In this document: positions 9,950-48,020 of the stretch, in pieces | Layout: each line of letters starts with the position of its first letter | How positions within the stretch are numbered: position 1 is the stretch's first letter | DNA from: Patescibacteria group bacterium | Lineage (GTDB): Bacteria > Patescibacteriota > Patescibacteriia > UBA9934 | Length of the DNA stretch: 64,000 nt | Assembly (NCBI GenBank): GCA_041660165.1 | Contig: JBAZWW010000003.1 | Coordinates: 4,352-68,351, forward strand | Reading direction: 5' to 3' | Program-made: the position numbers and the translations under genes | Notes under the pieces: model-generated | What the model saw: the letters and a program-made list of their open reading frames with translations, nothing else | Databases searched by the model: none | Told to the model about the DNA's origin: nothing

Positions 9950-10104
9950 GTATATTGGCTAGTACTAGCGATTCCTTATGACAAGACTGGATAAAATTTT
10001 TCCCAGCTAGGCGCCGACGAGTGAGGACCAAAACGTATCCGTAGGATACGTAGAGGTCCGAACGACAGAGGCGACAACGCTGGGGAATATTTTAGACAGT
10101 CTTA

Positions 10105-10180: not shown

Positions 10181-10295
10181 ATACCCACAACCCCTCTCAC
10201 CTCAATACCGAGTGTCGTAAAACACATTTCTCACATGCTATACTGTGCATTCGTCGCGGAAAGAGTATAAACAAAGCACATAGCCTGGTCAACGT

Positions 10296-13070: not shown

Positions 13071-13721
13071 ATGGCCCTGTCAGACGTTGAGGTTCGCCGG
13101 CTCCTTGCGGACTTAAGCGCGCGCCGGGCCACGGTCCGGGCGCTCTATGAGAACGGCATGGCGTTGATTGATATCATTGACGTCATGTGTTCTCTCGGTT
13201 CATCAGCCACCACCACGCGCCGGGATATCACACTCGCAAAGGAAACCTGCGATGCCGAGTACGATGATGCAACCTTTGCCAGACTTCTCGTGCTCCTGGC
13301 CATTCTGACGGTGAATGGGGAGTTCGATGATATGAGTGAGGATGCCGTTGCCCTGTGCCGGGAGGCGCTTGAGGAGTTTTTCCACCTCCGCAGATACCTC
13401 GGATTCATACAGGGATCCGTAAGAACTGCTGGTCTGGAGCGCGGAATAAACGCACACGCCGGAGATCCTCAAGTAATTTGGTTCAAAGCACTGTTAGGCA
13501 TCCTGAAACGCTGGGGCGAAGAAGAGACTGCCTCCAATGCGACGCATGAATTGGAATTAGAGGTCTGCAGAGTTTGCATCCTGGCCGTAGAAGAACAAAT
13601 AGCAGAAAGAGCGAAAGAGGCCTCCCTCAAGACCGCGGGAGAGAAACCATCGCAAGCCGATATTCACGATGCCATCGTCAAACTGGCTATCCTCGGGGCA
13701 GGAGAAACCGGAGAGGCGTGA
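13071..13721 (+). CDS. Hypothetical protein (GC-rich block)
   Basis: 216-aa ORF with no recognisable domain. Local GC is about 60%, well above the window average. Confidence 0.35.
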   Translation: MALSDVEVRRLLADLSARRATVRALYENGMALIDIIDVMCSLGSSATTTRRDITLAKETCDAEYDDATFARLLVLLAILTVNGEFDDMSEDAVALCREALEEFFHLRRYLGFIQGSVRTAGLERGINAHAGDPQVIWFKALLGILKRWGEEETASNATHELELEVCRVCILAVEEQIAERAKEASLKTAGEKPSQADIHDAIVKLAILGAGETGEA

Positions 13722-22533: not shown

Positions 22534-22863
22534 TTATGTTAACTGGAGCATCTTCTTTAATCGAGAATCCACGCCCTGCATAAGTGTTGGCTCAATCTGC
22601 CCCAATTCCCCAAGGACAATCTTCTTCTGAAGCGTGGCTAGTTTATTAACCTTGATGACCGAATCCTTTTTGAGTCCATTCGAACGTGTTGCTTTGATCC
22701 TTAAATCAAACGCCCCCAATTTAGCCTTTTGGATAGAGGAAATGAATGACACGATACAATCGTCGCCAGTCTTCTGCTCATAAAGGACTACGCAGGGGCG
22801 AACTTTATTCCCCGAAAGATCAGTGAACGGAAACGGAACGAGGACAATGGTTCCTTTAAGCAT
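22534..22863 (-). CDS. mazF: Type II toxin, PemK/MazF family mRNA interferase
   Basis: MLKGTIVLVPFPFTDLSGNKVRPCVVL matches the MazF/PemK N-terminal signature; 109 aa. It overlaps the upstream antitoxin by 8 nt. Confidence 0.75.
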   Translation of the reverse strand: MLKGTIVLVPFPFTDLSGNKVRPCVVLYEQKTGDDCIVSFISSIQKAKLGAFDLRIKATRSNGLKKDSVIKVNKLATLQKKIVLGELGQIEPTLMQGVDSRLKKMLQLT

Positions 22864-23107
22864 ATCTCTTCTTCAAATCCGCCACCGAGTACAACTCCGG
22901 CTCTTCCTGCAAAAAATCAAAGCTCCTGGACGCAGTGTTGATATTCGTAATCTCATTAACATCCTTGTTGTAGTAGCTTGGAAATTGAATCACGAGCGCG
23001 TCAATTGAGTGACGCCTACCAATGCCGAATACTTCGCCGTGCGTTTTTACGCGGTCAATGATGTGGCTCATCTGTTTCCTGGCGTTTGTAGTCGTCACAA
23101 CGTGCAT
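22856..23107 (-). CDS. Phd/YefM-like antitoxin
   Basis: Internal start MHVVTTTNARKQMSHIIDRVKTHGEVFGIGRRHSIDALVI resembles Phd/YefM; 83 aa. It is immediately upstream of, and overlapping, mazF. Confidence 0.55.
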   Translation of the reverse strand: MHVVTTTNARKQMSHIIDRVKTHGEVFGIGRRHSIDALVIQFPSYYNKDVNEITNINTASRSFDFLQEEPELYSVADLKKRYA

Positions 23108-23222
23108 ATGTACAAATTGTACAAAATGAATGCAAATCACACAAGATGTTGGCGAATCTCGCATAAAATCAACAGCGGCCGGGAATTCGTTCCCGACCGC
23201 TGATAGTTTGTCTACCCGTTTC

Positions 23223-23768
23223 TCACTGATACTCGTGCACCATCTTCCGCAACTTCATACGGGCAGAAAACAAGCACCGTTTCACCTTTCTCCGCGGAAT
23301 ACCCAAGACGTCTGAGATCTCCCTATACGAGAGACCTTCGAGCTCGCGCAGGAGGATCACTTTCTTCTGATCAATCGGCAGTTTATCAAGCGCATCCAAA
23401 ACTTTCCTATGTAACCGCCTACGCTCCTGGGCACCTAACGATACATCATTGTCTCGATCTGCCATCTGTAGCCCTACTTCCTCCGCGTCCGAACTCCGCT
23501 TTTTCTTTCGTTTGCCGAGGAACTCCACCGCCAACTTCATGGCGATGCCGTACAACCAGAGGTGGAACTTGGACTCAAGAGAAAAGCTGTCCAGGTTGGT
23601 GTATGCCTCCACGAAGGAATTCTGCGTAATGTCGCGAGCATCCTCCCGGTTACGGAGCATGCCGAACATGAGAGAATACACTTGCACATGATATTTCTCG
23701 ACAATGAGTCGGTAGGCGGGGGCGTCACCATCCTTCACCGCCATAAGAATCTCGAGATCGTCGTACAT
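23223..23768 (-). CDS. RNA polymerase sigma-70 factor, ECF subfamily
   Basis: Region 2 (YRLIVEKYHVQVYSLMFGMLRNREDARDITQNSFVEAY) and region 4 (ILLRELEGLSYREISDVLGIPRRKVKRCLFSARMKL); 181 aa. Confidence 0.8.
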   Translation of the reverse strand: MYDDLEILMAVKDGDAPAYRLIVEKYHVQVYSLMFGMLRNREDARDITQNSFVEAYTNLDSFSLESKFHLWLYGIAMKLAVEFLGKRKKKRSSDAEEVGLQMADRDNDVSLGAQERRRLHRKVLDALDKLPIDQKKVILLRELEGLSYREISDVLGIPRRKVKRCLFSARMKLRKMVHEYQ

Positions 23769-23848
23769 GTTGCCCCCAATCTGTCAGTTCTGAGCTATCG
23801 ATGTATTCGATCGCTCGGATCTGAACGCGAGGAGAGATGATGGTCATC

Positions 23849-24088
23849 TCAATCCTCGCGCGACGGCTTTTGAGCTGCCGTCATGTCAGCAGACGGCTCT
23901 GCATGAACTGATCGTACAAGGTCGAGATCATGACGAGTGGGTTCCATAAGATCGATAATCCGCTCGTCAATCTTCAGACCCGTTCGCATGACTGCAGCGA
24001 TATACGCTTTGTGAGCCAATTGGCGTATATCCGATATGTCAGAATCAGAAATAGTTCCCCAGCAATCAATCGGATCTCCAACGTGCAA
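23849..24088 (-). CDS. Hypothetical small protein upstream of the ECF sigma gene
   Basis: 79-aa ORF on the same strand as the sigma gene, with no recognised domain. Confidence 0.3.
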   Translation of the reverse strand: MHVGDPIDCWGTISDSDISDIRQLAHKAYIAAVMRTGLKIDERIIDLMEPTRHDLDLVRSVHAEPSADMTAAQKPSRED

Positions 24089-24199
24089 AGTCCACCTCCT
24101 GGCTGTATGATTGGGTAAGAATTTGCCTTACCGCACGGTTACAGGATATCATAAATCACAGCTTTTGTCAACCTAACAGGGTGATAATAATAGAATACT

Positions 24200-24961
24200 G
24201 TGGCTAAAATAGAGCTAAAATCAGCCCTTATATCGCTGGGCGTTACGGAACAGGAGACTGAGGTCTATTTAGCGCTGGCCGAGCTTGGAGCATGTACCAG
24301 CGGGCCGATTATTGAAAAAACTGGCCTGCACAGAAATGTTGTCTACACGGCGCTAGAACACTTAATCGCTCGCAAATTCGTCCTCGAATCCCAAGTAAAA
24401 GGTAAAAAACAGTTTGTAGTGGCTGATCCGACTGTCATTTCTACAGAATTCTCGCAAAAAGCCGAGATAGCCCGTGATGTGGCACTCGGAATTCAGACCC
24501 TCGCCAAACGCCAGAGGCAGGAAATCTCCGTGCATGAGGGAAATGAGGAATACCTCGCGCTGTTAGCCAGGCTGATTCGCGAACTGCCTCGAGGTGCCAC
24601 CAAGTACGTCCTTGGCACCGGCGGGGAAGCATTCATGGCCCTAACCATGCGTCCCATTTGGCGCAAATATCACAAAGTAGCCAAAGAGCAGGGGATTAAG
24701 ATCAAAATGATTGCATATGAGTCACAAAGGGCCGCGCTTGAACAGGATGTAACAAAAGAGGGGATCTATGAGGTGCGCTATCTGCCAGACGAAATTGAGA
24801 ATCCTTCCGGCGTTCATATCTACCCAGAAGCGAACACCATGCTGAACATAATTTACTCAACTACTGAACAACCTGTAACCGCCATTCGCATAAAAAATCC
24901 CGACCTTGTCCAAGGACAGCTCAACCTGTTCAAAAATCTTTGGAAGACGGCCAAGCCCTAG
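24200..24961 (+). CDS. TrmB-family HTH transcriptional regulator (paralog 3)
   Basis: LGVTEQETEVYLALAELGACTSGPIIEKTGLHRNVVYTALEHLIARKFV; 253 aa. Its end overlaps the convergent TIM-barrel gene by 4 nt. Confidence 0.65.
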   Translation: MAKIELKSALISLGVTEQETEVYLALAELGACTSGPIIEKTGLHRNVVYTALEHLIARKFVLESQVKGKKQFVVADPTVISTEFSQKAEIARDVALGIQTLAKRQRQEISVHEGNEEYLALLARLIRELPRGATKYVLGTGGEAFMALTMRPIWRKYHKVAKEQGIKIKMIAYESQRAALEQDVTKEGIYEVRYLPDEIENPSGVHIYPEANTMLNIIYSTTEQPVTAIRIKNPDLVQGQLNLFKNLWKTAKP

Positions 24962-25659
24962 CCTGCTCTCAAGTACCCCGTTATATATTCAAACTCCGTC
25001 TTCACCTCTTCAATGGCGTCAAACGTACTTTCAATAACCATCGGCACGTCGAGCTGTTTAGCGTAATCAAGGATGATCAGCTGTTGTGTTTGATAAAGCG
25101 GTTCGTGATAGCCCGCGTATCCGCTGATGTGCAGTTGTTTGATGCGGGCGCGGAACTCGGCGATAAATTCGTCAGCAAGTTTCATTGAGGGGTCGTTAGA
25201 AAAACAATGATTGAGGTCAAGAACCATGCCCCATGAATCATTCTCCTCAAAAAACTTTTTCAAGTCATCAACATTCTTAAAAGCCTTGTTTCGACAATCC
25301 ATGTTTTCCGCCGAGAAATTCATCGGATACTGACCGAATAACTCGGTGCTATCAATGAGATCCGGGTGTACAACAACGAGCTCAGCACCAATTGCTTGAT
25401 ACAACTCAAATGCCTTATCAAGCACGGCCTTTGTAACATCATCATTCGCGTAACGAACATCAGACGGCAGATGGATGGACGTTCTTGGATACTGTTTAGC
25501 AAACGGCGCAACCTCCATAAGCCGTTCTCCTTCCGCCAAATTGTTCCAACAAATCTCCAGCAATTCGCTCCCGCTCTTGGCATAGGCCTCAAACGCCCGC
25601 GGAGAAAACTTATCCGGTAGTCTATACAACGCCCCGTGAGTAAAGCCAATTTTCGGCAT
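24958..25659 (-). CDS. Sugar phosphate isomerase/epimerase (xylose-isomerase-like TIM barrel)
   Basis: 233 aa with VVHPD, LDLNHCF and LHISGYAGYHEPL metal-site-like motifs typical of the AP-endonuclease-2/xylose-isomerase TIM fold. It is the last gene of the HD / AlaRS-like / TIM-barrel operon. Confidence 0.6.
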   Translation of the reverse strand: MPKIGFTHGALYRLPDKFSPRAFEAYAKSGSELLEICWNNLAEGERLMEVAPFAKQYPRTSIHLPSDVRYANDDVTKAVLDKAFELYQAIGAELVVVHPDLIDSTELFGQYPMNFSAENMDCRNKAFKNVDDLKKFFEENDSWGMVLDLNHCFSNDPSMKLADEFIAEFRARIKQLHISGYAGYHEPLYQTQQLIILDYAKQLDVPMVIESTFDAIEEVKTEFEYITGYLRAG

Positions 25660-25670
25660 AAGAATGTTGA

Positions 25671-26807
25671 CTATCTTGTTGAAGCAATTTTATCTGCTAA
25701 CGTTTCTTTAATATATTCACGCTTTGCTTCAAACTCAGGAAATAGTACCCCAAAAAGATCAATCGCATTATCTGTCAGATTGGCAATGGTGACCGGCGAG
25801 TTGCGGAGCGACAACCGTTCGGCGCTATTATTAAAATTACGTATATATTTGTTAAATAGATACTTGCGGCTCCGATTTTTACTGCCGTGAAGTTCGCATA
25901 CCCCGTCATGCACTAAAAATACCAGTCCGCGGATATGGTCACACATAATGATCGCTTCTCTGTGAAGTTCTGGAGGAACAACCCCAAGCTGTCCCTTGAG
26001 ATTGTCGAGTATTGAAATATCGCCGATATCGGCAACCTGTTCAAATATTCTCATCAAACGTTGAGGCCCGAAACCTGCAGCAATGGCTGATTGGCTCATA
26101 GGCGTCAAGTCAAAATGCGATTCGCCGGTTTTGGTTTTCGTCACGCTGACCTCAAGGCTGTAAAGAACGTGGGTAAAAAACTCAAGCACTCCGCCTGTCT
26201 GTTCCGCAGCCCAAAATTCTGCCGGTGTTAATGCAATGCGCGATTCCTGCAAATCATAAAAGAATTCGCACCGCGGACCGCCAACAGGTTCAACCGTATT
26301 CGCCACAAAGCATTCCATCGGCGCACTGAGAAGCGTAGGAATGATGTGATCTGCTTGAAAACCAAGCGAAAGCAAAATGTCCCGCACTTCGTTATCAGGT
26401 TCAAAGGCGATGCCCTTGATCTCACCCCCGGCAAAATATGTGGCGTAGATTCTTGAGGCATCAAGATGGAGCTGTTTCGTAAAGAATTCTAAAAAGTGCC
26501 CAAGAACTTCAGTGCGAGTGAACCCGCCAATGCTATCGGCAACAAACATATTAAAAAATGATAGATGCTTACCGTCTCCCGTCAAATCAATATCCCAATG
26601 CCGGATACATGGCTGATTAACAATGTGGTTCCCCTGCAAAGAAGTATCACCACGCCAAAATTTATAGGCCAAATCAGGACCACCGCTCATGGTAAATGTT
26701 GTGGGGAAAATAGAAGAAACCAATTTCTCCCTCTCGCGGACTGCGTACCCCTTGGCAATCATGAAATTCTGAAACTGGAGATGAAGCTGGTAAAAATCAT
26801 TTTTCAT
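25671..26807 (-). CDS. Alanyl-tRNA synthetase catalytic-domain-only paralog (class II AlaRS core without tRNA-binding, editing or C-Ala domains)
   Basis: 378 aa that align along the AlaRS N-terminal catalytic domain. FQNFMIAKGYAV matches FLDFFxSKGH. NQPCIRHWDIDLTGDGKHLSFFNMF matches TSQRCVRxxDxxxVGxTxRHHTFFEMLGNFSFGDY. RIYATYFAGGE matches RLWVTVYExDDE. GGPRCEFFYD matches GPCGPCTEIFYDH. GFGPQRLMRIF matches GMGLERL. MCDHIRGLVFLVHDGV matches ADHIRAxAFLIADGV. Confidence 0.75.
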   Translation of the reverse strand: MKNDFYQLHLQFQNFMIAKGYAVREREKLVSSIFPTTFTMSGGPDLAYKFWRGDTSLQGNHIVNQPCIRHWDIDLTGDGKHLSFFNMFVADSIGGFTRTEVLGHFLEFFTKQLHLDASRIYATYFAGGEIKGIAFEPDNEVRDILLSLGFQADHIIPTLLSAPMECFVANTVEPVGGPRCEFFYDLQESRIALTPAEFWAAEQTGGVLEFFTHVLYSLEVSVTKTKTGESHFDLTPMSQSAIAAGFGPQRLMRIFEQVADIGDISILDNLKGQLGVVPPELHREAIIMCDHIRGLVFLVHDGVCELHGSKNRSRKYLFNKYIRNFNNSAERLSLRNSPVTIANLTDNAIDLFGVLFPEFEAKREYIKETLADKIASTR

Positions 26808-26907
26808 AAGACCTTTAAACCCAGCTTAACACGCCAGCCATGGGTTGGGTAATTTTCTGCGAGTAAAACAAAATGAGCCCTTTTAAAGACCTGCTCAGGT
26901 CTGACGG

Positions 26908-28395
26908 CTAATCGTTCTTGGCGTGGATGAGGTCATTCGCCAGACGGATAGCGGATTCGCGGACGGTGCGCGTGGGCACCAGCGGGGAACGGGGGACTTC
27001 CATGTAGAGCCGGACCATGCTCGCTTCTTGATCACGGAGCGTACACATGATGGCGGACTCTTGGAACCAGGTGGATTCCGCAGTCGAACAGCTGTACTTG
27101 CTCTCCGCATCGAATCCCACCAGGTACGAACCCTTCTCAATGTCCTTCATGGCCCGAAGCGGACGCCGATCCATAATGAAATGGATCTCCGGATACTGCT
27201 TCTGTAGTCCCTCCAGGAGCGGGCCACAGAGCCAGGTCTCTCTGGCCTTGAAGGCCCATACCCGCTTCCATAGCTTTCGTTCCTGAATCAATCTGGCCAG
27301 CTCAGAGATCCGTTCATTCGCCGGAAAGCCGGGTCGAAGAGTCCCCGTCAGCAGGCCCAGAAACATTTCATCGCCCAAGAAGAGGTAACTCTCCGTGAAC
27401 GAATCCAAACTTTCCATGTTCACTGGAGTGAGGCCCTGCCGGGTTGCCTCTTCTCCAATGGTCTGGAGCATGAGCTCCGCGGCTCGGTTGGTCTTGTTAA
27501 AATAGAACCCGCGGAACATCTGGAACCTCCCCCAGATGAAGGTCTCAATGGCTGAGAGTCCGCTTTCCCGCCAGCCCAGGCGGTAGCAGTCAGCTCCATC
27601 TGCATCGCGCACACAGAGCGCGGACTTGAGAATGCGGTGCTGATCGTAGTGTCCGCAGGTCACACCCGTAGCCCGCGAGTCCCGCAACAGGTAGTCCATA
27701 CGGTCCGCGTCCACTGGCGCAGAACTCACCATGTCCCGAATGAACGGGATCCACGGCCGGAGCTCTTCCGGCACGTTGAGGGCGTCCTCTCCAAGAAGAA
27801 CGGAAGCCACCACTCGGGGCATCCATTCATCTCCGCCAACATCGTTCCAAATGCAGGCGAACATGATGACGGACACCGTCTCATGGTGGACTCGGCCGGA
27901 CTTGGAAGCGATCAGCACGTTGCGGTACGGCGCGATTGCTTTGAGTCGAGGGTCATCCAGCACGCGATCGACGTCCTTCACGCTGGGCGCAAAGGCGTCA
28001 AAATTGTGGGACAACGGCCCGTGTCCCAGGTCATGCACGAGCGCGCACAGCCTGAGTACCCGGCGGATCTGCGCGTACTCCGCGGGCGGGAGATCAGCCA
28101 GACAAACCGCCTGTCCCGGCTTTGCATCCCGGAGCGCATAGAGCTTCCCGCGGATCTTCACGGATTCCCGATTGACCGCCTTCAGGATCCTGTTCGCCAT
28201 GGCCATCGTTCCCACTGAATGTTCAAACCGCGTGTGAACCGCGGACGGGAACACCAGGTGGAGCAGGCCGGTCTGACGAATATGCTTCATGCGCTGGAAA
28301 AGGCTGTGATCAATCACCGCCATCTCTTCATCAGTGAGATTCACAATACCGTGCAGACTATCCACGATAGTCCGCGATAGAACAAACAGACCCAT
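26908..28395 (-). CDS. HD-domain dGTPase/SAMHD1-like dNTP triphosphohydrolase family protein
   Basis: 495 aa. HTRFEHSVGTMAMANRI...LCALVHDLGHGPLSHNFD (HD motif) and VDADRMDYLLRDSRATGV (dGTPase-family signature). GC is about 60%, far above the flanking genes. Confidence 0.75.
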   Translation of the reverse strand: MGLFVLSRTIVDSLHGIVNLTDEEMAVIDHSLFQRMKHIRQTGLLHLVFPSAVHTRFEHSVGTMAMANRILKAVNRESVKIRGKLYALRDAKPGQAVCLADLPPAEYAQIRRVLRLCALVHDLGHGPLSHNFDAFAPSVKDVDRVLDDPRLKAIAPYRNVLIASKSGRVHHETVSVIMFACIWNDVGGDEWMPRVVASVLLGEDALNVPEELRPWIPFIRDMVSSAPVDADRMDYLLRDSRATGVTCGHYDQHRILKSALCVRDADGADCYRLGWRESGLSAIETFIWGRFQMFRGFYFNKTNRAAELMLQTIGEEATRQGLTPVNMESLDSFTESYLFLGDEMFLGLLTGTLRPGFPANERISELARLIQERKLWKRVWAFKARETWLCGPLLEGLQKQYPEIHFIMDRRPLRAMKDIEKGSYLVGFDAESKYSCSTAESTWFQESAIMCTLRDQEASMVRLYMEVPRSPLVPTRTVRESAIRLANDLIHAKND

Positions 28396-29195: not shown

Positions 29196-29271
29196 TGGGG
29201 TGGCTAACGGGAATTGAACCCGTACTAGAGGTACCACAAACCTCTGTGATAACCATTTCACCATAGCCACC
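29196..29271 (-). tRNA. tRNA-His (anticodon GTG) with genomically encoded G-1
   Basis: Reverse complement is G-GTGGCTATGGTGAAATGGTTATCACAGAGGTTTGTGGTACCTCTAGTACGGGTTCAATTCCCGTTAGCCACCCCA. Anticodon loop TTGTGGT, extra 5' G opposite discriminator C, T-loop TTCAATT, encoded CCA. Confidence 0.85.
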
Positions 29272-29433
29272 ATGACACGAACGGAGGCATGATAGCAGGG
29301 AAAAGGGGATAAATCAAGGCTTCATCCCGATGACAATACGCAATCGGTAATTGACGAAAACGTACTTACAAGGCACTCTCTCACGTCGATCGTCCACCGA
29401 TGACCGACCGATCCCCACGTTTCGGAGGTCACC

Positions 29434-29964
29434 ATGCTCGCACTCCTTCTGCTCGGTTCCGCGTTGGCCGGCGACACCTTTGTTCAGCTCCAGGCTGATA
29501 CGGCGGTCACCCTCGCTGATGGCGCGGTTGACGAGCGCGCTAAGGTGCTCATTGACGATCCGCTCAATAAGAAATGGAGCGTGAGCGTTTTCACGCTCGT
29601 AACGCCAAACTACGGCGAGCTCATCCTTGGGCCAACGCTTCACGTCAACGACTTCGCGCTCACCGTGAGCATCGGCATCGAAACTGCAGAGATGCCCCTG
29701 CGTGGCGAGTTCTCACTCTACTGGGCGCACCGTCATCTTGAAGTGCTCATCTCCGCTGAAACCGGCGGGTCAGGGCCATGGTACGTCAGCTTCGTGAAGG
29801 AACACATTGGATGCCTCACGGTCGGTATTCTCACCCAACGATTCGACGGCATTGGCCCGCGCATCGGCCTTGCGACGGACAGATCCGAATTCTGGATCTC
29901 GCCCATGTACGACTACGAGGACGGCGCGTTCAACATCCTAGCCGGTCTCAGCTGGACGCCGTAA
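29434..29964 (+). CDS. Secreted hypothetical protein (GC-rich, beta-rich)
   Basis: Strong RBS GGAGGTcaccATG. Signal peptide MLALLLLGSALAG. 176 aa with alternating hydrophobic pattern; about 62% GC. Confidence 0.45.
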   Translation: MLALLLLGSALAGDTFVQLQADTAVTLADGAVDERAKVLIDDPLNKKWSVSVFTLVTPNYGELILGPTLHVNDFALTVSIGIETAEMPLRGEFSLYWAHRHLEVLISAETGGSGPWYVSFVKEHIGCLTVGILTQRFDGIGPRIGLATDRSEFWISPMYDYEDGAFNILAGLSWTP

Positions 29965-30060
29965 CTACCGTGCCCGCAAACAAAGCCCCGACGGCGTTCG
30001 TCGGGGCTTTAATTATTTCAGTTGAATGATACTGAAAGACGCGCTACGCTTTAAAAAAGT

Positions 30061-30456
30061 ATGCTGCACATCAAGTATAAACTTGCCCCCTCAATACATC
30101 ACGGCATCGGTCTTTTTGCCGATCAAAATATACAAAAGAATCAGCTGATTTACTCGGCCAGCCCGTTGCTCGACGTTAATATCTCTCCCGAAGAATTCAG
30201 TAAATTATCGCTCTCGGAACAAGCCGAGATTTCGTATTGGGGTTTTCTCGATAAACAATCTGGCCTTTGGCACGTTGATTTTGATGTTTCAAAATTTATC
30301 AATCACTCTTCAGCGCCAAATATCACGCAAGATCCTATCTCAACAGAAACTCGCCTCATTGCCCTAAAAGACATTTCCGCCGGCGAGGAACTGACGCAAA
30401 ACTATCTTGAATTTGAAACAAAAGAAGATCTGAAGAGAAGAGGGATCAGTACTTAA
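30061..30456 (+). CDS. SET-domain protein (putative protein-lysine methyltransferase)
   Basis: 131 aa. INHSSAPN matches the SET NHSCxPN motif and GEELTQNY matches GEELTxxY; preceded by a GIGLFA-like N-SET segment. Confidence 0.6.
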   Translation: MLHIKYKLAPSIHHGIGLFADQNIQKNQLIYSASPLLDVNISPEEFSKLSLSEQAEISYWGFLDKQSGLWHVDFDVSKFINHSSAPNITQDPISTETRLIALKDISAGEELTQNYLEFETKEDLKRRGIST

Positions 30457-31298
30457 CCTTTTAACTTTTTCTGCTTAGGCGGGAGCTGGCCGATTTTTCG
30501 GCGAACAAGGTCTTTAATGTGCTCTTGGGCTGGCCGGTCTTCAGGCATGGGGGCATTTAATTTTTGGATGGTCTCACGGACGGCCTGTCCAACCTTAAAG
30601 TGCGTGTAGCTAGCGGGATCTTCGCCTGTAATACCATCTCTTATTAGTAATTCGTTGGTCTGAGTGATGCGGAAAAGATTGGCTGCTAACTCAGCCGACC
30701 CGGCAAAATCTAAAATATCACCCTCACTAATTCCTTTCTTCTTGCGAATATCGCTTGCCGTTAGTCCGTAAAGACCAACGTAGCCAAAATTATTGAACTT
30801 CCCGAAATTTTCTACACCGGCATCTTTAGCGGTTCTAAATAACCGATTATTATGCGAAGCCACCTGACGTCTTATCTGCAACCGATTCCCATCGTCATCA
30901 ATCACCTCTAATAGCTCTTGCTTCCTGGTCTGCACAGCAAAATATGTTTGCGCAAAAGCGATCTCGGGCTTTCGAGGATCACCATTTTGAGCAATTAGAT
31001 AACAAGCAAAGCGGGAAAGCTGATAATCAATAATCTTACGCCTCGCCTCTCTCGGCGTGTTTTTGCCAATGATTATCATTTTCGGGTCGACCCGAAAATG
31101 ATCCTCAAGCGACTGACTCGTACTAGCACAAACTGCTTGGGCCCGACGAATAGTCTTATGGAAGTCCTCCCATCTCGAATAATCGAGTAATGACATCAAC
31201 TCCCTGGCCTCCCAATATTCAAAACCCTGCTCATCTACCTTCTTAATTGACTCAAAATCCTTATGTAACGAAACCGGCACAATGGCATTGTTCGGCAT
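30453..31298 (-). CDS. dinD: DNA-damage-inducible protein D family protein
   Basis: EYWEARELMSLLDYSRWEDFHKTIRRAQAVC...DHFRVDPKMIIIG...LSRFACYLIAQNGDPRKPEIAFAQTYFAVQTRKQEL closely follows the E. coli DinD N-terminal domain; 281 aa. Confidence 0.7.
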   Translation of the reverse strand: MPNNAIVPVSLHKDFESIKKVDEQGFEYWEARELMSLLDYSRWEDFHKTIRRAQAVCASTSQSLEDHFRVDPKMIIIGKNTPREARRKIIDYQLSRFACYLIAQNGDPRKPEIAFAQTYFAVQTRKQELLEVIDDDGNRLQIRRQVASHNNRLFRTAKDAGVENFGKFNNFGYVGLYGLTASDIRKKKGISEGDILDFAGSAELAANLFRITQTNELLIRDGITGEDPASYTHFKVGQAVRETIQKLNAPMPEDRPAQEHIKDLVRRKIGQLPPKQKKLKG

Positions 31299-31363
31299 AT
31301 GTTCGTATCATACGACGAACAAATTTTGTCGCAAAACGGTTTGTACACACCAAAAAAGCGCCT

Positions 31364-32290
31364 CTATTTCTTTTTTTTGTCGTGGAACTCTTTGTACACG
31401 CGCCCCAGCTCTTTATCCGTAATATGGGTATACACCTGCGTCGTCGTAATCGACTCGTGTCCAAGCAATGATTGCACCGCGCGAATATCGGCGCCGTTTC
31501 GCAGTAAGTCTGTAGCGTAAGTATGTCGCAACGTGTGCGGGGTTACGCGTTTAGTGATCCCCGCTTCTCGAGCGTAGCGATCGACGATCCGCTGAACCGA
31601 GCGGGGAGTGAGCGGTTGGGCGCTCGCCGAAGAACGTCGAGCTCGATCATGCCGTACAAAAAGATAAGGCGAGGTGTCCTTGCGATGATCGAGATACGCC
31701 TTAATCGAACGCTTGGCATCGTCCGACAAGTAGACAATGCGATGTTTCTTGCCTTTGCCGAGCACCGTGAACTCATCCCGTTTCAAATTGATATTTTCGA
31801 TCTTCAAAGTCGAAGCCTCGGACACGCGCATACCGGTCGAAAACAAAAGCTCGAGCATGGCCTTGTCGCGATAACCAACAATGGTTGGGTCGTTCAACGG
31901 GCCGGCGCGAAATCTTTCGAACTCGTCGGCTTCGAGAAAACTCACATGCCTGGTGCCTTGTTTCGCGAGTTCGATCTTCTCAGCAGCCATGCTCTTAATA
32001 TCTCTCTTCGCGAGGTACTTCAGGAACGCTCGCAAAGCGATCAGGTGATAATTTTGCGTATTCTTTTTCAAATTCGCTTCCTCTCGCCCCGCAATGTCTC
32101 GGTTCAAATGAAGCCGGTACTTCCGCACCATTTCCTGCGTAATCTCCTGCGGATTGGGATGCTTGGCCCAATCCGAAAACCTGCTCAGATAAAAATGGTA
32201 ATTTTTCACCGTCTTATCCGACCGCCCACGCTCGATCTCCAGGTACTCAAGAAATTCTTTAATGTATTTGGCAAGTATGTTCTTTGGCAT
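31364..32290 (-). CDS. Tyrosine-type site-specific recombinase/integrase (XerC/XerD-like)
   Basis: 308 aa. N-terminal SAM-like core-binding domain. Catalytic motifs GMRVSEASTL (R), HTLRHTYATDLLRNGADIRAVQSLLGHESITTTQVYTH (H-x-x-R...Y). Confidence 0.85.
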   Translation of the reverse strand: MPKNILAKYIKEFLEYLEIERGRSDKTVKNYHFYLSRFSDWAKHPNPQEITQEMVRKYRLHLNRDIAGREEANLKKNTQNYHLIALRAFLKYLAKRDIKSMAAEKIELAKQGTRHVSFLEADEFERFRAGPLNDPTIVGYRDKAMLELLFSTGMRVSEASTLKIENINLKRDEFTVLGKGKKHRIVYLSDDAKRSIKAYLDHRKDTSPYLFVRHDRARRSSASAQPLTPRSVQRIVDRYAREAGITKRVTPHTLRHTYATDLLRNGADIRAVQSLLGHESITTTQVYTHITDKELGRVYKEFHDKKKK

Positions 32291-32301
32291 ATTACGATGT
32301 T

Positions 32302-32373
32302 GTCATCCCGAGCAGAGCGAGGGATCTGAATGGCCAATCAGATCCTTCGTCGCTAAAAGCTCCTCAGGATGAC
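32302..32373. repeat. Complete palindromic MITE/REP-like element (type 1 exemplar) abutting the integrase start
   Basis: GTCATCCCGAGCAGAGCGAGGGATCTGA-atggccaa-TCAGATCCTTCGTCGCTAAAAGCTCCTCAGGATGAC forms a long imperfect hairpin. Confidence 0.65.
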
Positions 32374-32705
32374 ACTGACCGTGTGTCGCACATTGTACAC
32401 CCGCGGTACCGTATAAAGAGTTGACCTCAGCCATTTTCCGGTGTATCCTCCTGCCTCTGCGTCGCCTGACGCGGATCGAGTTCCTTTCGTTCCATGGAGA
32501 GTTCGTGCCCCTGCCTCATGAGGCTCCCAGCCTCCCGCCCGTTGATCCCTTTGGCGAGCAACCGCTCGCGACCTTTGACGAGAGGGAAGACTTTCGCCCG
32601 CGCCTGTCAATCTACAAATTGCCCGGTACAGGCAGGTTGCCCCTTGTCCCAACGTCTCACCCTAGCCCAGCCGTACCGTACGAGCTGGAAAAATCATGGA
32701 GAGCG

Positions 32706-32901
32706 AATGCCGACGGATGAAACGAGTGATGCAGATCACCCATCCTGCCACTACAACGACTACGAAGCAGATGCCCCGGTGGCAGGTAACGGAAACCCCC
32801 GCCCGCCGGAACGCTGTGACACCGTGGTCACACGGCGCGCGGACGGCACGTTCGTTTCCGAAACGAGCATCCTGAATGACGGAAAAACCTTCTGGAGGTA
32901 G
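32706..32901 (+). CDS. Putative small protein (64 aa) in GC-rich intergenic block
   Basis: GGAGAGcgaATG RBS-like context; MPTDETSDADHPSCHYNDYEADAPVAGNGNPRPPERCDTVV.... The stop overlaps the RBS of the next small ORF. Weak evidence. Confidence 0.25.
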
Positions 32902-33136
32902 ACCGATGAGCCGAGACGATCGTTTTATTGATGCATTCACCGTGTTCAATGACCCCGTGGATCCGTGCTTCGTGGTTTACGACCTGGTGGCAACAGGTCA
33001 TATCCCGCCCACGGCGAAACCGCCTGTTATGTCGCCGGCCAACGAACCGCCCAATATCGACGGCGAAAAGTCTGCCACGGCGCCAACCAGCGGATACGGC
33101 CACTTCGGCACCACCCGCGGTGGGAGCCGGCACTAG
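32897..33136 (+). CDS. Putative small protein (79 aa) in GC-rich intergenic block
   Basis: Strong RBS GGAGGTagaccgATG; MSRDDRFIDAFTVFNDPVDPCFVVYDLVATGHIPPTAKPPVM.... No homolog recognised. Confidence 0.3.
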   Translation, partial: GRPMSRDDRFIDAFTVFNDPVDPCFVVYDLVATGHIPPTAKPPVMSPANEPPNIDGEKSATAPTSGYGHFGTTRGGSRH

Positions 33137-33306
33137 CATTGAACGCCTTGAACCCCGCTCTCTTCGTGAGACGCGGGGTTCTGCATTTCTTGACCATTTC
33201 GGCATTCTCGACTATTCTTTCCCTGCATTCATTTATACAGCCGTTTACCACGGTTTTTGGCTAGAGCAAGCCTTTTACTGAGACAATCGGCACAACTCAT
33301 ACTGCT

Positions 33307-33573
33307 ATGCTCGACAAGACAAAGAAAGATAAGGTCATTAAGAAGTTCCGCACCCATGAGTCAGACACCGGCTCACCACAGGTGCAGATCGCCATTCTGA
33401 CGGAGGAAATCAAGGAGCTGACTAAGCACTTGAAGACCCACCGCAAGGATTTCAGCTCACGCCGTGGACTTGTAAAGAAGGTCTCGGAACGCCGCCGCCT
33501 CTTGAAGTACTTGGAGCGCGAGAATGAAAAGGCGTATGCAGAGATCATTGCAGAGCTTGGTTTGAAGAAATAA
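33307..33573 (+). CDS. rpsO: 30S ribosomal protein S15
   Basis: MLDKTKKDKVIKKFRTHESDTGSPQVQIAILTEEIKELTKHLKTHRKDFSSRRGLVKKVSERRRLLKYL is a canonical S15 sequence of 88 aa. Confidence 0.85.
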   Translation: MLDKTKKDKVIKKFRTHESDTGSPQVQIAILTEEIKELTKHLKTHRKDFSSRRGLVKKVSERRRLLKYLERENEKAYAEIIAELGLKK

Positions 33574-33579
33574 AGGAAC

Positions 33580-33616
33580 AGCCGACCTTGCACCTTGGTG
33601 TCCGGTCGGCTTTTTA
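33580..33616 (+). terminator. Rho-independent terminator after rpsO
   Basis: AGCCGACCttgcaccttggtgtccGGTCGGCTTTTTAT. Confidence 0.6.
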
Positions 33617-33685
33617 TCTCACCCCGAGGTAACGAGGGGTAGCATGGAGGTCATTGGTTCAAACAAGTTTCAGTAGCCAATTCTA

Positions 33686-33706
33686 TCCCTCCTCACGTCG
33701 GGATGG
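33686..33706. repeat. GC-rich intergenic repeat (type 2 copy)
   Basis: TCCCTCCTCACGTCGGGATGG. Confidence 0.45.
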
Positions 33707-33756
33707 AGATCAGTCCGGTTGTTCGACAGATATAATTCATTCACTTTTTTCTTGCT

Positions 33757-34425
33757 ATGTTAGACTTTTCGAATCGTCGGGTTGGAGTTTTCATTGACGT
33801 GCAGAACATGTATTACAGTGCCAGGAATATTTACGGAAGCAAGGTGAACTTTGGCAACATTGTGAAGGTGGCAGCGGGGGATCAGAAGCTCATCCGCGCC
33901 GTGGCCTACACCATTTCGACCAAGACGGGGGACGAACTTCCATTCTTTGAGGCTTTGCACAAGTCAGGCATCGAGGTAAACACAAAGGAGCTTCTCGAAT
34001 ACGATTCAGGACACAAAAAAGGGGACTGGGACGTAGGAATTACGGTCGATATCATCCGCATGCTTGATACCGTGGACGTGGTGGTCATCGTGTCCGGCGA
34101 CGGCGACTACATTCCGCTTGGCGAGTACATCAAAAATCGCGGACGCATCTTCCATGTGGTGTCCTTCCGCGAATCAACGTCAAGCAAACTGGTCGAAGCT
34201 GCGGACATTTACACAAACTTATCAGACAACTTGGGCGAGTTCCTAATCCGTGATCCAAAGTACCGGCCAACGCAACAGCGCAAGCCGTCAACTACAGATA
34301 CATTCGATGACGTGATTGCTGAACAGGGCGAGCATGCCTTCAAGCCGATTGGACATGAAGCCGAAACGCCAGACGCAAACGCACCGCGTCGCCGAGGCCG
34401 TCCAGCAAAGAATCCAGCGGCGTAA
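33757..34425 (+). CDS. NYN-domain (LabA/DUF88-like) putative RNase with C-terminal AT-hook-like tail
   Basis: MLDFSNRRVGVFIDVQNMYYSAR...AVAYT...VVVIVSGDGDYIPL matches the NYN/LabA fold. C-terminal RRRGRPAKNPAA; 222 aa. Confidence 0.7.
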   Translation: MLDFSNRRVGVFIDVQNMYYSARNIYGSKVNFGNIVKVAAGDQKLIRAVAYTISTKTGDELPFFEALHKSGIEVNTKELLEYDSGHKKGDWDVGITVDIIRMLDTVDVVVIVSGDGDYIPLGEYIKNRGRIFHVVSFRESTSSKLVEAADIYTNLSDNLGEFLIRDPKYRPTQQRKPSTTDTFDDVIAEQGEHAFKPIGHEAETPDANAPRRRGRPAKNPAA

Positions 34426-34450
34426 ACGATCGAGCAACCGGACGGGTTCC

Positions 34451-34532
34451 CATCCCGAGCAATGCGAGGGATCCGACTTTCCCCTGTGACAGTGGAGAGG
34501 GTCGGGCCCTTCGCTCTCGCTCAGGGTGGGAT
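34451..34532. repeat. Long palindromic intergenic repeat (type 3 copy)
   Basis: CATCCCGAGCAATGCGAGGGATCCGAC...GTCGGGCCCTTCGCTCTCGCTCAGGGTGGGAT. Related to 53121-53200 and 61379-61467. Confidence 0.6.
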
Positions 34533-34593
34533 AAGATGAGCACTTCGTGCACACCGAATAGGAACTAACGTAAAAGGGTAAAATAATAAAACT

Positions 34594-36795
34594 ATGGACT
34601 TGAAATCGTATTCGATTGATTTTGGCGGAAAGAAACTGACGATTGAGACAGGGAAGTTTGCCAAGGCAGCTAATGGAAGCTGTACCGTGCGTTACGGAGA
34701 CACCGTTGTGCTCGCCACGGCCGTGATGAGCAAAGACGTGCGACCAGGACTAAGCTTTTTCCCGCTCATGGTTGATTTTGAAGAAAAGCTTTACGCAGCG
34801 GGCCGGATCAAAGGATCTCGCTTTATCAAGCGCGAAGGACGTCCGACTGATGAGGCAGTCCTCGCCGCTCGTTTTATTGACCGAGCAATCAGACCGCTGT
34901 TCGATCAACGAATTGCTAACGACGTGCAGGTCATCATTTCGGTCATCGCGTTTGATCAAGAAAATGACGCCGACATTCCAGGTTTGATCGCCGCGTCCTG
35001 CGCGCTTCACATGAGCGATATTCCGTGGAACGGCCCAATTGCTGTGGCTCGCATCAACGCTGACGCCGAGGGCAAATTCATTCTGAACGGTACATATGCT
35101 GAACGCGAAATTGCCAAATTTGACGTAGACGTAGCCGGTAATTCAGAAAAAGTCATCATGATTGAAGCCGGTTGTGATGAAGCGCCGGAAGATGAAGTGA
35201 TTGACGCCATTGCCTACGGACGCGAGAGCCTTGGCCCGGTTATCGAGCTGATTGAAAAGGTTCGCTCTGAATGCGGAAAACCAAAAGTCGATCTCATCAC
35301 GCCCAAAACGGACAGTGCAAAACGGATTGCCGAAAAAACGGATGATCTACGCGCTCTCCTTGCCCCATTCACAAGAAAAACGATCCAGGAACTTTTCTTT
35401 GCCGTACCAAAAGCCACAAAATCCGAACGCGCTCTGGCCAAGGATCAAATGAAAAAACTCACCGTCGCCTTCTTAACTGAACAAGGCCAAGATGAAGAGG
35501 GGATTATCATTGGCAAGTCCTTGCTCGGCGAATTACTCGACGCAGAAATCACGCGCACAATTATTGAGGACGGCAAGCGCGTTGACGGACGCGGACTTTA
35601 TGACGTGCGCGAACTTTCAAGCGAAGTGGCGCTCTTCCCGTGCGTGCACGGTTCCGGTTTCTTTAACCGCGGTGAAACACAGGTGCTGTCGATCGTAACG
35701 CTTGGCGCTCCTGGCGATAAGCAGACGCTGGACGGCATGGAATTAGTCGGCGAGAGACGATTCATGCACCACTACAACTTCCCCCCATTCTCTGTGGGCG
35801 AGGCCAAACCATTACGCGGAGCCGGACGCAGAGAAATTGGCCACGGCGCACTGGCAGAAAAAGCCCTCGCTTTCATGATTCCGGACAAGGAAACGTTCCC
35901 CTACACCATTCGCGTGGTATCCGAAGTACTCGGTTCTAATGGATCGAGTTCTATGGGCTCAACCTGCGGTACCTCACTCGCACTTATGGACGCTGGCGTG
36001 CCGATCAAGGCCGCAGTTGCTGGAATCGCCATGGGACTGGCGTCGAACGGCAAGAAATATCAGGTCATTACTGATCTCCAGGATCTCGAAGATGGCGAAG
36101 GCGGAATGGACTTCAAGATTACAGGCACTCGAAAAGGTATTACGGCTATTCAGCTCGACACCAAGACGGACGGCATCCCGCATGACGTTATTGTTGAGGC
36201 CGTTACCCGCTCGCAAACTGCCCGCATGAAAATTCTCGACGTGATGGCAACGGCCATCCCCACGCCTCGAGCCGAGCTTTCACCAAACGCTCCGCGCATC
36301 ATTAACATTCAAATCAATCCAGACAAGATCCGCGAAGTTATTGGTTCGGGCGGAAAGACAATCAATGAGATTATCGAGAAGACGGGTGTTTCAGATATCG
36401 ACATCGAACAAACCGGTCTTGTTATGATCACCTCATCTGACGCGGAATCAGCCCAGAAAGCATATGATTGGATCTACAACCTGACGCGTGATCTCCAGGT
36501 AGGCGAGGTCTTCTACGGTGAAGTGGTCCGCCTCATGGACTTTGGCGCCTTCGTTCAGGTGCTCCCCGGAAAAGATGGCCTGGTCCATGTTTCCGAGATG
36601 GCCCCATGGAGGGTCGAGAAGGTAACAGACGTCGTGAACGTTGGCGATAAGGTTCATGTGAAGGTCATCGAGATAGATGAAAAAGGCCGAGTGAACCTCT
36701 CCATGAAACAGGCCGAAGGAAACGTGTACACTGATGAGATGAAAGCCAAGGCTTCCACGGGATCTTCAAAACCCGCCGGCAAGCGCTACGTGTAA
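34594..36795 (+). CDS. pnp: Polyribonucleotide nucleotidyltransferase (PNPase)
   Basis: 733 aa. Two RNase PH-like domains, KH (IREVIGSGGKTINEI) and S1 (GEVFYGEVVRLMDFGAFVQVLPGKDGLVHVSE) domains. Confidence 0.9.
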   Translation: MDLKSYSIDFGGKKLTIETGKFAKAANGSCTVRYGDTVVLATAVMSKDVRPGLSFFPLMVDFEEKLYAAGRIKGSRFIKREGRPTDEAVLAARFIDRAIRPLFDQRIANDVQVIISVIAFDQENDADIPGLIAASCALHMSDIPWNGPIAVARINADAEGKFILNGTYAEREIAKFDVDVAGNSEKVIMIEAGCDEAPEDEVIDAIAYGRESLGPVIELIEKVRSECGKPKVDLITPKTDSAKRIAEKTDDLRALLAPFTRKTIQELFFAVPKATKSERALAKDQMKKLTVAFLTEQGQDEEGIIIGKSLLGELLDAEITRTIIEDGKRVDGRGLYDVRELSSEVALFPCVHGSGFFNRGETQVLSIVTLGAPGDKQTLDGMELVGERRFMHHYNFPPFSVGEAKPLRGAGRREIGHGALAEKALAFMIPDKETFPYTIRVVSEVLGSNGSSSMGSTCGTSLALMDAGVPIKAAVAGIAMGLASNGKKYQVITDLQDLEDGEGGMDFKITGTRKGITAIQLDTKTDGIPHDVIVEAVTRSQTARMKILDVMATAIPTPRAELSPNAPRIINIQINPDKIREVIGSGGKTINEIIEKTGVSDIDIEQTGLVMITSSDAESAQKAYDWIYNLTRDLQVGEVFYGEVVRLMDFGAFVQVLPGKDGLVHVSEMAPWRVEKVTDVVNVGDKVHVKVIEIDEKGRVNLSMKQAEGNVYTDEMKAKASTGSSKPAGKRYV

Positions 36796-46616: not shown

Positions 46617-48020
46617 ATGGAAATTGGTTCGCCCATGAATACTCACGAACTTTGGCAGGCTGTTCTGGCCCGCCTTGAACTCAAGCTGAGTAAAGCGCAT
46701 TTCAGTACGTGGTTCCGCCAAACCTTTGTTTGCGAATACCGAATAGGGGAGGCCATCATTGCCGTGCCGAACAACATTGCCCAGTCGTGGCTGGAAAAGA
46801 AGTATTACAAAGACATCCTTGAAGCACTCCAGGCCGTGACGGACCAGCCGATCCGTAAACTAACGGTTCGCATTGAAACAAAGCCCCTTCCGCCACAACC
46901 CATTCAGCTCACCGCGCAGAAGCCCGCCCCCGCTGATGACTACGGTTTCCTGCCAACCAATGGCGCAGAGCCAATGCAGGCGCCAACGGGCAACATTTCC
47001 GTTAATCCCATCTACACCTTTCAAACATTCGTCGTCGGCAAACAGAACGAACTCGCCCACGCCGCGTCACAGGCCGTCTCCTCTCAACCCGGCGGAACGT
47101 ATAACCCGCTCTTCATTTATGGAGGCGTCGGACTCGGCAAAACCCACCTACTGCATGCCATAGCCAACGAAATCCGCAGAAAGTGGCAAAACGCCCGTAT
47201 CATGTATGTAACGTGCGAGCATTTCACGAACGACTTCATTCACTCTATCCGCTCTGGTAAGGGCAAGGAATTCAAGGATCGCTACCGCAATGTTGATCTC
47301 CTGCTGATCGACGACATTCAGTTTATTACCGGCAAAGAGGGGACTCAGGAAGAGTTCTTCCATACCTTTAACACGCTCCACCAGGACAACAAGCAGATCG
47401 TCATCTCATCAGACCGTCCACCGAAATCGATCGCCGGCCTTGAAAAACGCCTGCAGTCCCGGCTCGAATGGGGCATGCTCGTAGACGTTGGCACGCCGGA
47501 TCTCGAAACCAGGATCGCCATTCTCGAAAAGAAGTGTCTCGAGAAAGGCTTTCCTCTAAATAAGGAGATCCTGCAGTACGTTGCCTCAACTGTTTCATCG
47601 AACGTTCGCGAACTTGAAGGCGCTTTGAACAAAATCATCGCCGTTCACCAGTTCCGCAACATGGAAGCAACCCTAGACACCATCAAACCGATTATTTCCA
47701 CGTTTGAGTCCGAAAACATCAAGAAAACTGTGACACCCAAGCAGGTCATCATGATCGTGGCGGCCTATTTCGACATTCAGATTGAGGACGTACTTGGCAA
47801 GTCTCGTGAAAAACGCCTAGCCTTCCCCCGACAGATCATCATGTTCTTACTTCGCGAGGAAATGAAGTCCTCGTACCCCACCATTGGCACAGAACTTGGC
47901 GGTAGAGATCACACCACTGCCATGCACGCACACTCAAAGATCATGAATATGCTTGATTCTGATGATAAACTTCAGAAAGACCTCGAGCTTATCAAGCAAC
48001 GCCTGTACACCGGTGTATAA
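46617..48020 (+). CDS. dnaA: Chromosomal replication initiator protein DnaA
   Basis: 467 aa. ELWQAVLARLELKLSKAHFSTWF (domain I). Walker A GGVGLGKTHLL. Walker B LLLIDDIQF. Sensor/box VII. C-terminal DNA-binding helix (HTTAMHAHSKI). The start may be the internal Met at 46635. Confidence 0.9.
   Translation: MEIGSPMNTHELWQAVLARLELKLSKAHFSTWFRQTFVCEYRIGEAIIAVPNNIAQSWLEKKYYKDILEALQAVTDQPIRKLTVRIETKPLPPQPIQLTAQKPAPADDYGFLPTNGAEPMQAPTGNISVNPIYTFQTFVVGKQNELAHAASQAVSSQPGGTYNPLFIYGGVGLGKTHLLHAIANEIRRKWQNARIMYVTCEHFTNDFIHSIRSGKGKEFKDRYRNVDLLLIDDIQFITGKEGTQEEFFHTFNTLHQDNKQIVISSDRPPKSIAGLEKRLQSRLEWGMLVDVGTPDLETRIAILEKKCLEKGFPLNKEILQYVASTVSSNVRELEGALNKIIAVHQFRNMEATLDTIKPIISTFESENIKKTVTPKQVIMIVAAYFDIQIEDVLGKSREKRLAFPRQIIMFLLREEMKSSYPTIGTELGGRDHTTAMHAHSKIMNMLDSDDKLQKDLELIKQRLYTGV

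Follow-up and report, generated by a model that had tools for sequence, protein, structure and literature searches.

We analyzed a four-gene interval in a 64-kb window, meaning the whole stretch of DNA under study, which is part of a 73-kb Patescibacteria (Candidate Phyla Radiation, CPR) metagenome contig. Next to tRNA-His, the interval encodes a secreted beta-protein (sec176), a SET-domain protein, a DinD homolog, and a Xer-type tyrosine recombinase (xer). An earlier note, written from the sequence alone, had proposed that these genes are either the integrase end of an island or a Xer recombinase with hitch-hiking cargo. Our comparisons with related genomes make it very probable that the interval is an ordinary chromosomal neighbourhood of a CPR bacterium, in which Xer is core, its neighbours are variable, and no mobile element is present. 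The four genes lie beside tRNA-His as first placed, with open reading frame (ORF), ARAGORN, and Rfam calls in agreement, and the same four genes, with identical proteins, were recovered from a second metagenome sample.

The recombinase contains a Phage_integrase domain (PF00589, E 2.9e-46) and an N-terminal SAM-like core-binding domain (PF02899, E 6.9e-14), and its candidate catalytic residues, assigned by motif, are R155, K181/182, H252, R255, H278, and Y287. Among solved structures, it is most similar to Pyrococcus XerA (4a8e, E 1e-40) and Escherichia coli XerD (1a0p). The archaeal XerA-type model NF040815 was the only one of three Xer models that it passed (231.5 against a cutoff of 220). 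Similarity to XerC and XerD was about equal, consistent with the initial description of a XerC/D-like tyrosine recombinase. A literature search on Xer and dif in CPR bacteria returned nothing relevant.

Synteny was assessed by tblastn of the window proteins against 80 loci anchored on polynucleotide phosphorylase (PNPase), and the relatives compared are referred to by locus label (L005, L006, L007, L009, L021, L088, L089, L092, L094, and others by L-number). The closest PNPases among species-representative genomes were 61-57% identical and came from metagenome-assembled genomes of Patescibacteria, Uhrbacteria, and Magasanikbacteria. Xer orthologues that are 55-61% identical and divergent from rpsO-NYN-pnp were found in L005, L006, L007, L009, and L021, with tRNA-Arg(tct) directly downstream of xer in all five. 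In L088 and L094 (Xer 91% and PNPase 85% identical), xer likewise stands head-to-head with rpsO-NYN-pnp. Conserved synteny, one of three findings named beforehand as refuting the earlier interpretation, was present in seven genomes. The GC content at third codon positions (GC3) of xer is 0.61, a host-typical value. Together, this synteny and the host-typical GC3 indicate, at the level of sequence comparison, that the recombinase is a core, vertically inherited chromosomal Xer of the lineage rather than an island integrase.

The earlier note had advised looking for a second xer copy and for dif-like sites. As far as the 64 kb reach, there is no other tyrosine recombinase. No dif-like site was found near xer: no sequence in the 64 kb matched any of six known dif consensus sequences at 19 or more of 28 positions, and the xer flanks of eight genomes had no common motif except the context of the xer start codon. 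Cumulative GC skew is lowest at dnaA (46617-48020) and dnaN (48300-49433), so the window spans the replication origin, and the position of these genes puts xer about 14 kb from it. Because xer is origin-proximal, a terminus dif site is not expected within the window. Xer is presumed to resolve chromosome dimers at dif near the replication terminus, which would be far from this locus.

The genes downstream of xer were distributed differently. In a co-presence test, Xer occurred in all relatives, DinD and sec176 in close relatives only, and SET in the window genome only. The gene order in L088 is tRNA-Arg(tct), lipoprotein, tRNA-His, a 159-aa gene, sec176, a 254-aa gene, HD, DinD, Xer, and rpsO, with the 254-aa and HD genes standing where the window has SET. 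Identity between the window and L088 is 69% for DinD, 69% for sec176, and 70% for the lipoprotein, and the DinD-xer junction falls inside a single continuous 1.8-kb nucleotide alignment with 73% identity over both genes. Orthologues of sec176 (61-69% identity) occupy the same locus in L088 and L089, while DinD adjoins xer in L088 too and lies near it in L094. The shared locus and the alignable DinD-xer junction imply that DinD and the beta-protein were present there in the common ancestor with the closest relatives.

In L092, DinD and the barrel gene sec176 are back to back, with only a terminator-like hairpin between them. Comparison of the window with the L092 and L088 junctions revealed a clean 440-bp difference (Table 1), with the last DinD codon altered too. 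SET is a separate one-gene indel of this length, with the barrel gene's terminator hairpin on one side and the DinD stop codon on the other. In L094, a MazE-PemK pair, a 157-aa gene, and a TrmB regulator separate xer from DinD; comparable PemK and TrmB genes are found in the window 9 kb off, beside tRNA-Arg(tct). We propose that in this clade the stretch downstream of xer became a zone of local turnover, where genes have been gained, lost, inverted, and shuffled among closely related genomes, and that a small hairpin repeat landed in the xer promoter region. No functional link has been demonstrated among the products of the Xer, DinD, SET, and barrel genes; what looked like a module amounts to genes that happen to neighbour a core Xer, and the adjacency of Xer and DinD is an accident of the lineage. 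As a separate observation, the L094 DinD (10001-10830) aligned in two pieces in different frames, a frameshift that marks either a pseudogene or an assembly error.

An island integrated at tRNA-His (or tRNA-Arg), with the Xer-like enzyme as integrase and sec176, SET, and DinD as cargo, would fit the tRNA genes on both sides of the variable zone, its mixed base composition, and the 9-kb stretch from tRNA-Arg(tct) to xer, which holds PemK, ECF (extracytoplasmic function) sigma, TrmB, and HD-domain genes together with candidate-defence matches. However, the recombinase stays beside rpsO in seven genomes across 55-91% identity, and some of these genomes have no cargo, with tRNA-Arg alone downstream of xer. 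The codon GC of xer is that of the host, and the presumed cargo genes are not distributed alike across the relatives. In addition, tRNA-His is directed away from the four genes, which lie on its 5' side. Attachment-site (att) repeats had been suggested as a further check, and none flank the interval: no flanking direct repeat or partial tRNA copy of at least 14 nt was found, and a search with five tRNA sequences gave only chance-length matches, none exceeding 13 nt. The idea of an integrase end is contradicted by these data, and the sequence comparisons, synteny above all, largely refute an island, which we regard as extremely improbable. A Xer with hitch-hiking cargo comes close to the data, as the neighbours are indeed unrelated genes, but they do not form a single cargo unit: DinD and sec176 are shared with relatives, and only SET is an indel.

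The variable slot is bounded on its left by a perfect terminator-like hairpin of the bidirectional type (AAAGCCCCGACGG..CGTCGGGGCTTT). In L092 this hairpin abuts the DinD end, and L088 contains it twice (~10560-10600 and 13074-13102), flanking the 254-aa gene and the HD gene. This duplication around the L088 insert hints at recombination between hairpin copies.

Xer itself might have inserted its neighbours, either in the manner of an integrative mobile element exploiting Xer (IMEX) at a dif-like site or as integron-like cassettes with hairpin sites. Consistent with such activity, close relatives differ in gene content directly beside xer, the variable slot is edged by a repeated hairpin present in two copies in L088, and Xer weakly resembles integron integrases (TIGR02249, 138 bits). 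Nonetheless, the integron-integrase models are far from their cutoffs (138 against 265 for TIGR02249; 83 against 435 for PRK15417), the hairpin consists of a plain GC stem flanked by A and T runs and resembles an intrinsic terminator rather than attC, and the slot genes are in mixed orientations; an integron reading of the repeated hairpin was rejected on these three grounds. The absence of a dif match and of a motif common to the xer flanks, within the searches described above, and the location of the locus near the origin instead of the terminus also argue against insertion by Xer, which we consider very unlikely.

Two other repeats were considered and set aside. The arms of a perfect 15-nt inverted repeat (at 29462-29476 and 33030-33044) bracket the four genes, as the ends of an invertible segment might, but the repeat is missing in L088 and L089 and one side lies in non-conserved sequence, so it was taken as chance. 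A 25-nt direct repeat between the DinD promoter (31324-31348) and the xer 3' end (31375-31399) is 80% identical, occurs in two copies, and was indistinguishable from chance.

Several observations weigh against an ordinary neighbourhood organized around a core Xer. The recombinase is below the equivalog cutoffs for both XerC (245.8 against 335.15) and XerD (238.4 against 329.6), and the count of Xer genes and the dif search cover one contig of the genome. The SET indel may be a gain here or a loss elsewhere. In the Streptococcus satellite phages, which are true mobile elements, DinD adjoins an integrase, as an island would have it. Finally, when GC3 was compared over the 42 ORFs examined (window range 0.43-0.75), the neighbours of xer lay at the extremes, with SET lowest (0.43), DinD third-lowest (0.46), and sec176 second highest (0.73). 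These extremes make it plausible that individual genes were acquired horizontally at some time.

The assignment of DinD was upheld by the NCBIfam equivalog NF008573, which it matched over residues 11-268 with 303.1 bits against a cutoff of 242, and the protein also matched the PADLOC candidate defence family PDC-S13 (E 1.5e-95). A literature search on PDC-S13 found nothing relevant. The E. coli DinD homologue restrains RecA. From its sequence, the window DinD is a candidate Bro-N-type DNA-binding protein whose family is listed as a candidate anti-phage gene. DinD homologues number in the thousands, many of them in CPR bacteria, and full-length matches include 43 from phages and 30 from plasmids, in line with the general claim that this family is often carried on mobile elements. 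A general link to recombinases did not hold, as a tyrosine recombinase occurred within 3 kb of DinD at only 2 of 80 metagenomic loci. In the Streptococcus satellite phage Javan729 (L097), DinD lies directly beside a tyrosine integrase with a RelE-type toxin near, and it is this type of arrangement that makes the window locus look mobile.

Upstream of DinD, a promoter-like sequence, TTGcGACA-N17-TATGAT (31299-31345), is conserved in L092 and L094. About 7 nt separate its end from the DinD start codon, and there is no Shine-Dalgarno sequence, which suggests that the DinD mRNA has little or no leader. No LexA box was identified at DinD; a palindrome overlapping the promoter-like sequence (TGTTCGT-N8-ACGAACA, 31300-31321) was considered as a LexA-like operator but was not conserved in L092 or L094 and was rejected.

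An 11-N6-8-11 palindrome scan, originally aimed at recombination sites, identified a perfect palindrome inside the DinD ORF (ATCATTTTCGGGTC|GACCCGAAAATGAT; Table 1), spanning the codons for D-H-F-R-V-D-P-K-M. The palindrome is kept in the close relatives L088, L092, and L094, where the inner bases differ with both arms changing together. The amino acids shift with the bases, so that the peptides over the palindrome are HFTGAGKM, HFRGAPKM, and HFRGAPKM. This pattern extended to a wider sample of 80 diverse DinD loci with 43-56% identity, which yielded 66 unique sequences. Across these, complementarity from the centre outward was 0.50, then 0.74-0.98 (positions 2-14), then about 0.29, near chance. 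On average 12.2 of 15 pairs were complementary, compared to 3.8 at 10,876 control positions drawn from these genes.

Covariation was measured in 65 sequences, where a 12-pair helix was 92.6% paired and 7 of the 12 pairs had changed on both sides. The covariation score was 0.366, compared to 0.165 in shuffles (none of 500 reached it) and at most 0.16 when the partners were slid; a flanking control helix was at chance level. Codon usage was skewed toward the pairing codons relative to elsewhere in the same genes (CAT, 0.92 vs 0.64; TTT, 0.91 vs 0.66; AAA, 0.86 vs 0.67). In the outer arms, CAT..ATG (H..M) covaries to CAA..TTG (Q..L), and TTC..GAA turns a conserved K into E (F..K to F..E). Further paired replacements include H..M to L..K, and R..P, V..D, T..G, or A..G in the inner arms.

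The dyad has the consensus ACCATTTT-N6|N6'-AAAATGGT (~28 bp) and is found in some 90 genes encoding DinD or phage antirepressors across several phyla, with a spread that takes in CPR bacteria, Proteobacteria, Firmicute satellite phages, and actinobacteriophages. Antirepressors of Mycobacterium and Gordonia phages carry it at the same codons, though only the N-terminal domain is shared, as in CAATTTCCCGGC|GCCGGGAAATTG and CTTTTTGGGAGC|GCCCCCAAAAAG. In L120, L132, L147, and a Thiothrix plasmid, the last of which has lost the internal copy, a free-standing copy precedes dinD by 35-200 nt, and L135 has one 30 nt past the dinD stop codon. The copies in E. coli dinD (10/14) and Neisseria gonorrhoeae (12/14) are less complete, the former being degenerate.

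Collectively, these patterns make it fairly probable that DinD/Bro-N antirepressor genes carry a cis-acting dyad element kept by selection on the nucleotides themselves. Candidate roles include an operator or structure-specific protein target, which the Bro-N domain itself might recognize, a cruciform or a site of recombination, and an mRNA hairpin. In RNA form, the palindrome would fold at -20.5 kcal/mol. Pairing continues through the centre, with the second pair from the centre also covarying, and G-T mismatches on the sense strand were not in excess over A-C mismatches (32 vs 45). Because of these two features, we lean toward a DNA-level dyad, either a protein site or a cruciform, over a plain mRNA hairpin. 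The palindrome had no match in Rfam, and we found no description of palindromes in the literature on DinD or Bro-N.

The SET protein scored 52 bits against a Pfam gathering threshold of 22.4, and the motifs G15-x-G17, N81-H82-S83, and G108EELTQNY115 are present, the last two having been noted at the outset. Its predicted model is of low confidence (pLDDT 63) and served for fold class alone, with fold-search matches that were exclusively SET methyltransferases. Such proteins had been described as rare in bacteria, which is not the case in this phylum: we found 585 homologues of near-constant length (~130 aa) and about 60-67% identity, and all those with a named source were from Patescibacteria. 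An alignment of 30 homologues had a mean column identity of 72% and 42 invariant columns, among them G15, G17, N81, H82, E110, and Y115. On long contigs in three other genomes, the homologues have entirely different neighbours, and 2.9 million viral contigs contained just two remote relatives. A literature search found no relevant description of CPR SET proteins.

SET effectors occur in intracellular pathogens, and the window protein could likewise be a secreted, host-targeting effector acquired by an episymbiont, as in Legionella or Chlamydia. Its presence as a single-gene indel and its GC3, the lowest in the window, agree with such an origin. However, the protein has no signal peptide (N-terminus MLHIKYKL), no secretion genes adjoin it in four contexts, and a phylum-wide family of uniform length with 42 invariant columns fits a conserved endogenous substrate better than an arms race. 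An effector role is unlikely in our view. The conservation of the family indicates instead that SET is a stand-alone, phylum-wide, predicted S-adenosylmethionine-dependent lysine methyltransferase, which probably acts on an endogenous substrate.

The secreted protein sec176 has a strong ribosome-binding site (GGAGGT, 29424-29429) 5 bases ahead of its ATG, and the signal helix and beta strands expected of it were recovered, although its GC content is 59.1% rather than the 62% first reported. It had no Pfam or NCBIfam match. AlphaFold predicted a signal helix and 12 strands with pLDDT 84.7 and pTM (predicted template-modelling score) 0.73, from an alignment of 8 sequences and with two of five models below 50. 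The top Foldseek matches of this model were KdgM, NanC, intimin/invasin beta-domains, and OmpG, with template-modelling (TM) scores of 0.55-0.65. Ten of the 12 strands are amphipathic, an AxA cleavage motif is conserved in the homologues, and the C-terminus reads W-T-P, with no terminal aromatic residue. A profile search related 582 clusters of similar size to sec176 (including P0121-P0128 and P0249-P0397), none covered by a Pfam model, and members with a source name or mapped locus belong to Patescibacteria. We predict from the model that sec176 is an exported 12-strand porin-like barrel. Patescibacteria are generally regarded as having no outer membrane.

Upstream of xer, an 81-nt hairpin repeat begins 10 nt from the start codon and folds as DNA at -22.9 kcal/mol (z -2.9). 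Its 27-nt arm belongs to a dispersed repeat (TGTCATCCCGAGCRGAGCGAGGGATCT) that occurs five times in the window, compared to 0 expected (16405, 32301, 45228, 45555, and 49467). The second, inverted arm is present in the 32301 copy only, and the other four copies are single-armed. The copies at 45228 and 45555 are just upstream of dnaA. Relative to L088, the hairpin repeat is an insertion, after which native xer-proximal sequence picks up again at 32382-32401. The earlier note had called it a complete miniature inverted-repeat transposable element (MITE). The hairpin, its location at the xer start, its inverted arms, and its insertion all stand, but there is only one full copy and no target-site duplication is evident.

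The xer-rpsO spacer beyond this repeat could not be aligned to L088 except for about 80 bp before rpsO, and unrelated sequence replaces it in L088 and L094. Two small ORFs in the spacer had no homologues in close relatives and no Pfam match. The adjacency of tRNA-His and sec176 recurs in L088 and L089 and is also implied by the over-extended gene call P0125. On the far side of tRNA-His, the 6 kb from tRNA-Arg(tct) to the lipoprotein gene (22534-28395) are missing in L088. They encode a PemK toxin, an ECF sigma factor, a TrmB regulator, an AlaX-like protein, a GC-rich HD-domain protein, and a 233-aa protein matching the candidate defence family PDC-M70B, a content akin to that of an accessory or defence region.

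Table 1. Features of the interval between tRNA-His and pnp, in window coordinates.
Feature	Position	Strand	Evidence and remarks
tRNA-His(gtg)	29196-29270	minus	ARAGORN and Rfam; conserved neighbour of the barrel gene sec176
sec176, secreted 176-aa protein	29434-29964	+	ORF list, AlphaFold; GC 59.1%, GC3 0.73
Perfect 11-7-11 GC-rich terminator-like hairpin	29982-30010	.	Palindrome scan; 3' of sec176
440-bp single-gene indel with the SET gene	30019-30458	+	Junction comparison with L092 and L088
SET ORF, 131 aa	30061-30456	+	Pfam SET PF00856, E 1.1e-13
DinD, Bro-N-type N-terminal domain, 281 aa	30453-31298	-	NCBIfam NF008573
Perfect 28-bp palindrome in the DinD ORF, codons D66-M74	31075-31102	.	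Palindrome scan
Xer-type tyrosine recombinase, 308 aa	31364-32290	-	Pfam, NCBIfam, synteny
Dispersed 27-31-nt repeat, MITE-like; copy with two arms forming a hairpin	32301-32381	.	Repeat count and L088 comparison
xer-rpsO spacer, GC-rich (57%), not conserved	32382-33211	.	Comparison with relatives
Small ORFs in the xer-rpsO spacer, 64 and 76 aa	32707-32901 and 32906-33136		
rpsO, NYN-domain gene, and pnp; conserved housekeeping block anchoring xer	33307-36795	+	

These results suggest that a tyrosine recombinase, odd genes, and a tRNA are insufficient for calling an island in CPR genomes, and that the question is quickly decided by synteny, even when the relatives compared are distant. Viewed as a possible mobile element, the locus is ordinary and mostly explained, with each gene coming from a known family in a little-studied lineage. 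The DinD palindrome above all, together with the SET and barrel families, is most worth following. The palindrome would be a rare bacterial case of a nucleic-acid element overriding protein sequence inside a gene. The SET family could open a route to protein methylation in the reduced genomes of Patescibacteria, and porin-like barrels in a phylum thought to have no outer membrane raise the question of which membrane holds them.

Compared to known systems, the window Xer shares its two-domain architecture and R-K-H-R-H-Y residues with dimer-resolution enzymes such as E. coli XerC/XerD and the single-enzyme systems XerS, XerH, and archaeal XerA, and its gene is conserved, chromosomal, and single-copy-looking, as in those systems. 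Unlike XerC and XerD, it scores under both equivalog cutoffs and its gene is origin-proximal, and whereas dif adjoins the gene in XerS/difSL and XerH/difH, none was found adjoining this xer. The locus resembles tRNA-linked islands with a terminal tyrosine integrase in its flanking tRNAs, mixed composition, accessory-type genes, and recombinase at the edge; it differs in that the recombinase is core and syntenic, att repeats are absent, and the genes do not travel together.

Among the neighbours, SET is as bare as other minimal SET enzymes (PBCV-1 vSET of 119 aa, Schizosaccharomyces pombe Set7, and archaeal and chlamydial SET proteins), with no pre- or post-SET regions and with cofactor and catalytic motifs intact. 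It is at most about 20-28% identical to solved SET domains and, unlike them, belongs to a tightly conserved Patescibacteria family of its own. The sec176 model is similar to KdgM/NanC and intimin/invasin barrels in its signal peptide, 12 antiparallel amphipathic strands, and size (TM 0.60-0.65), but at 7-13% identity it has no sequence similarity to them and no Pfam family. DinD matches E. coli DinD (PRK11525) over its full length at 47% identity, and its match to PDC-S13 is likewise full length.

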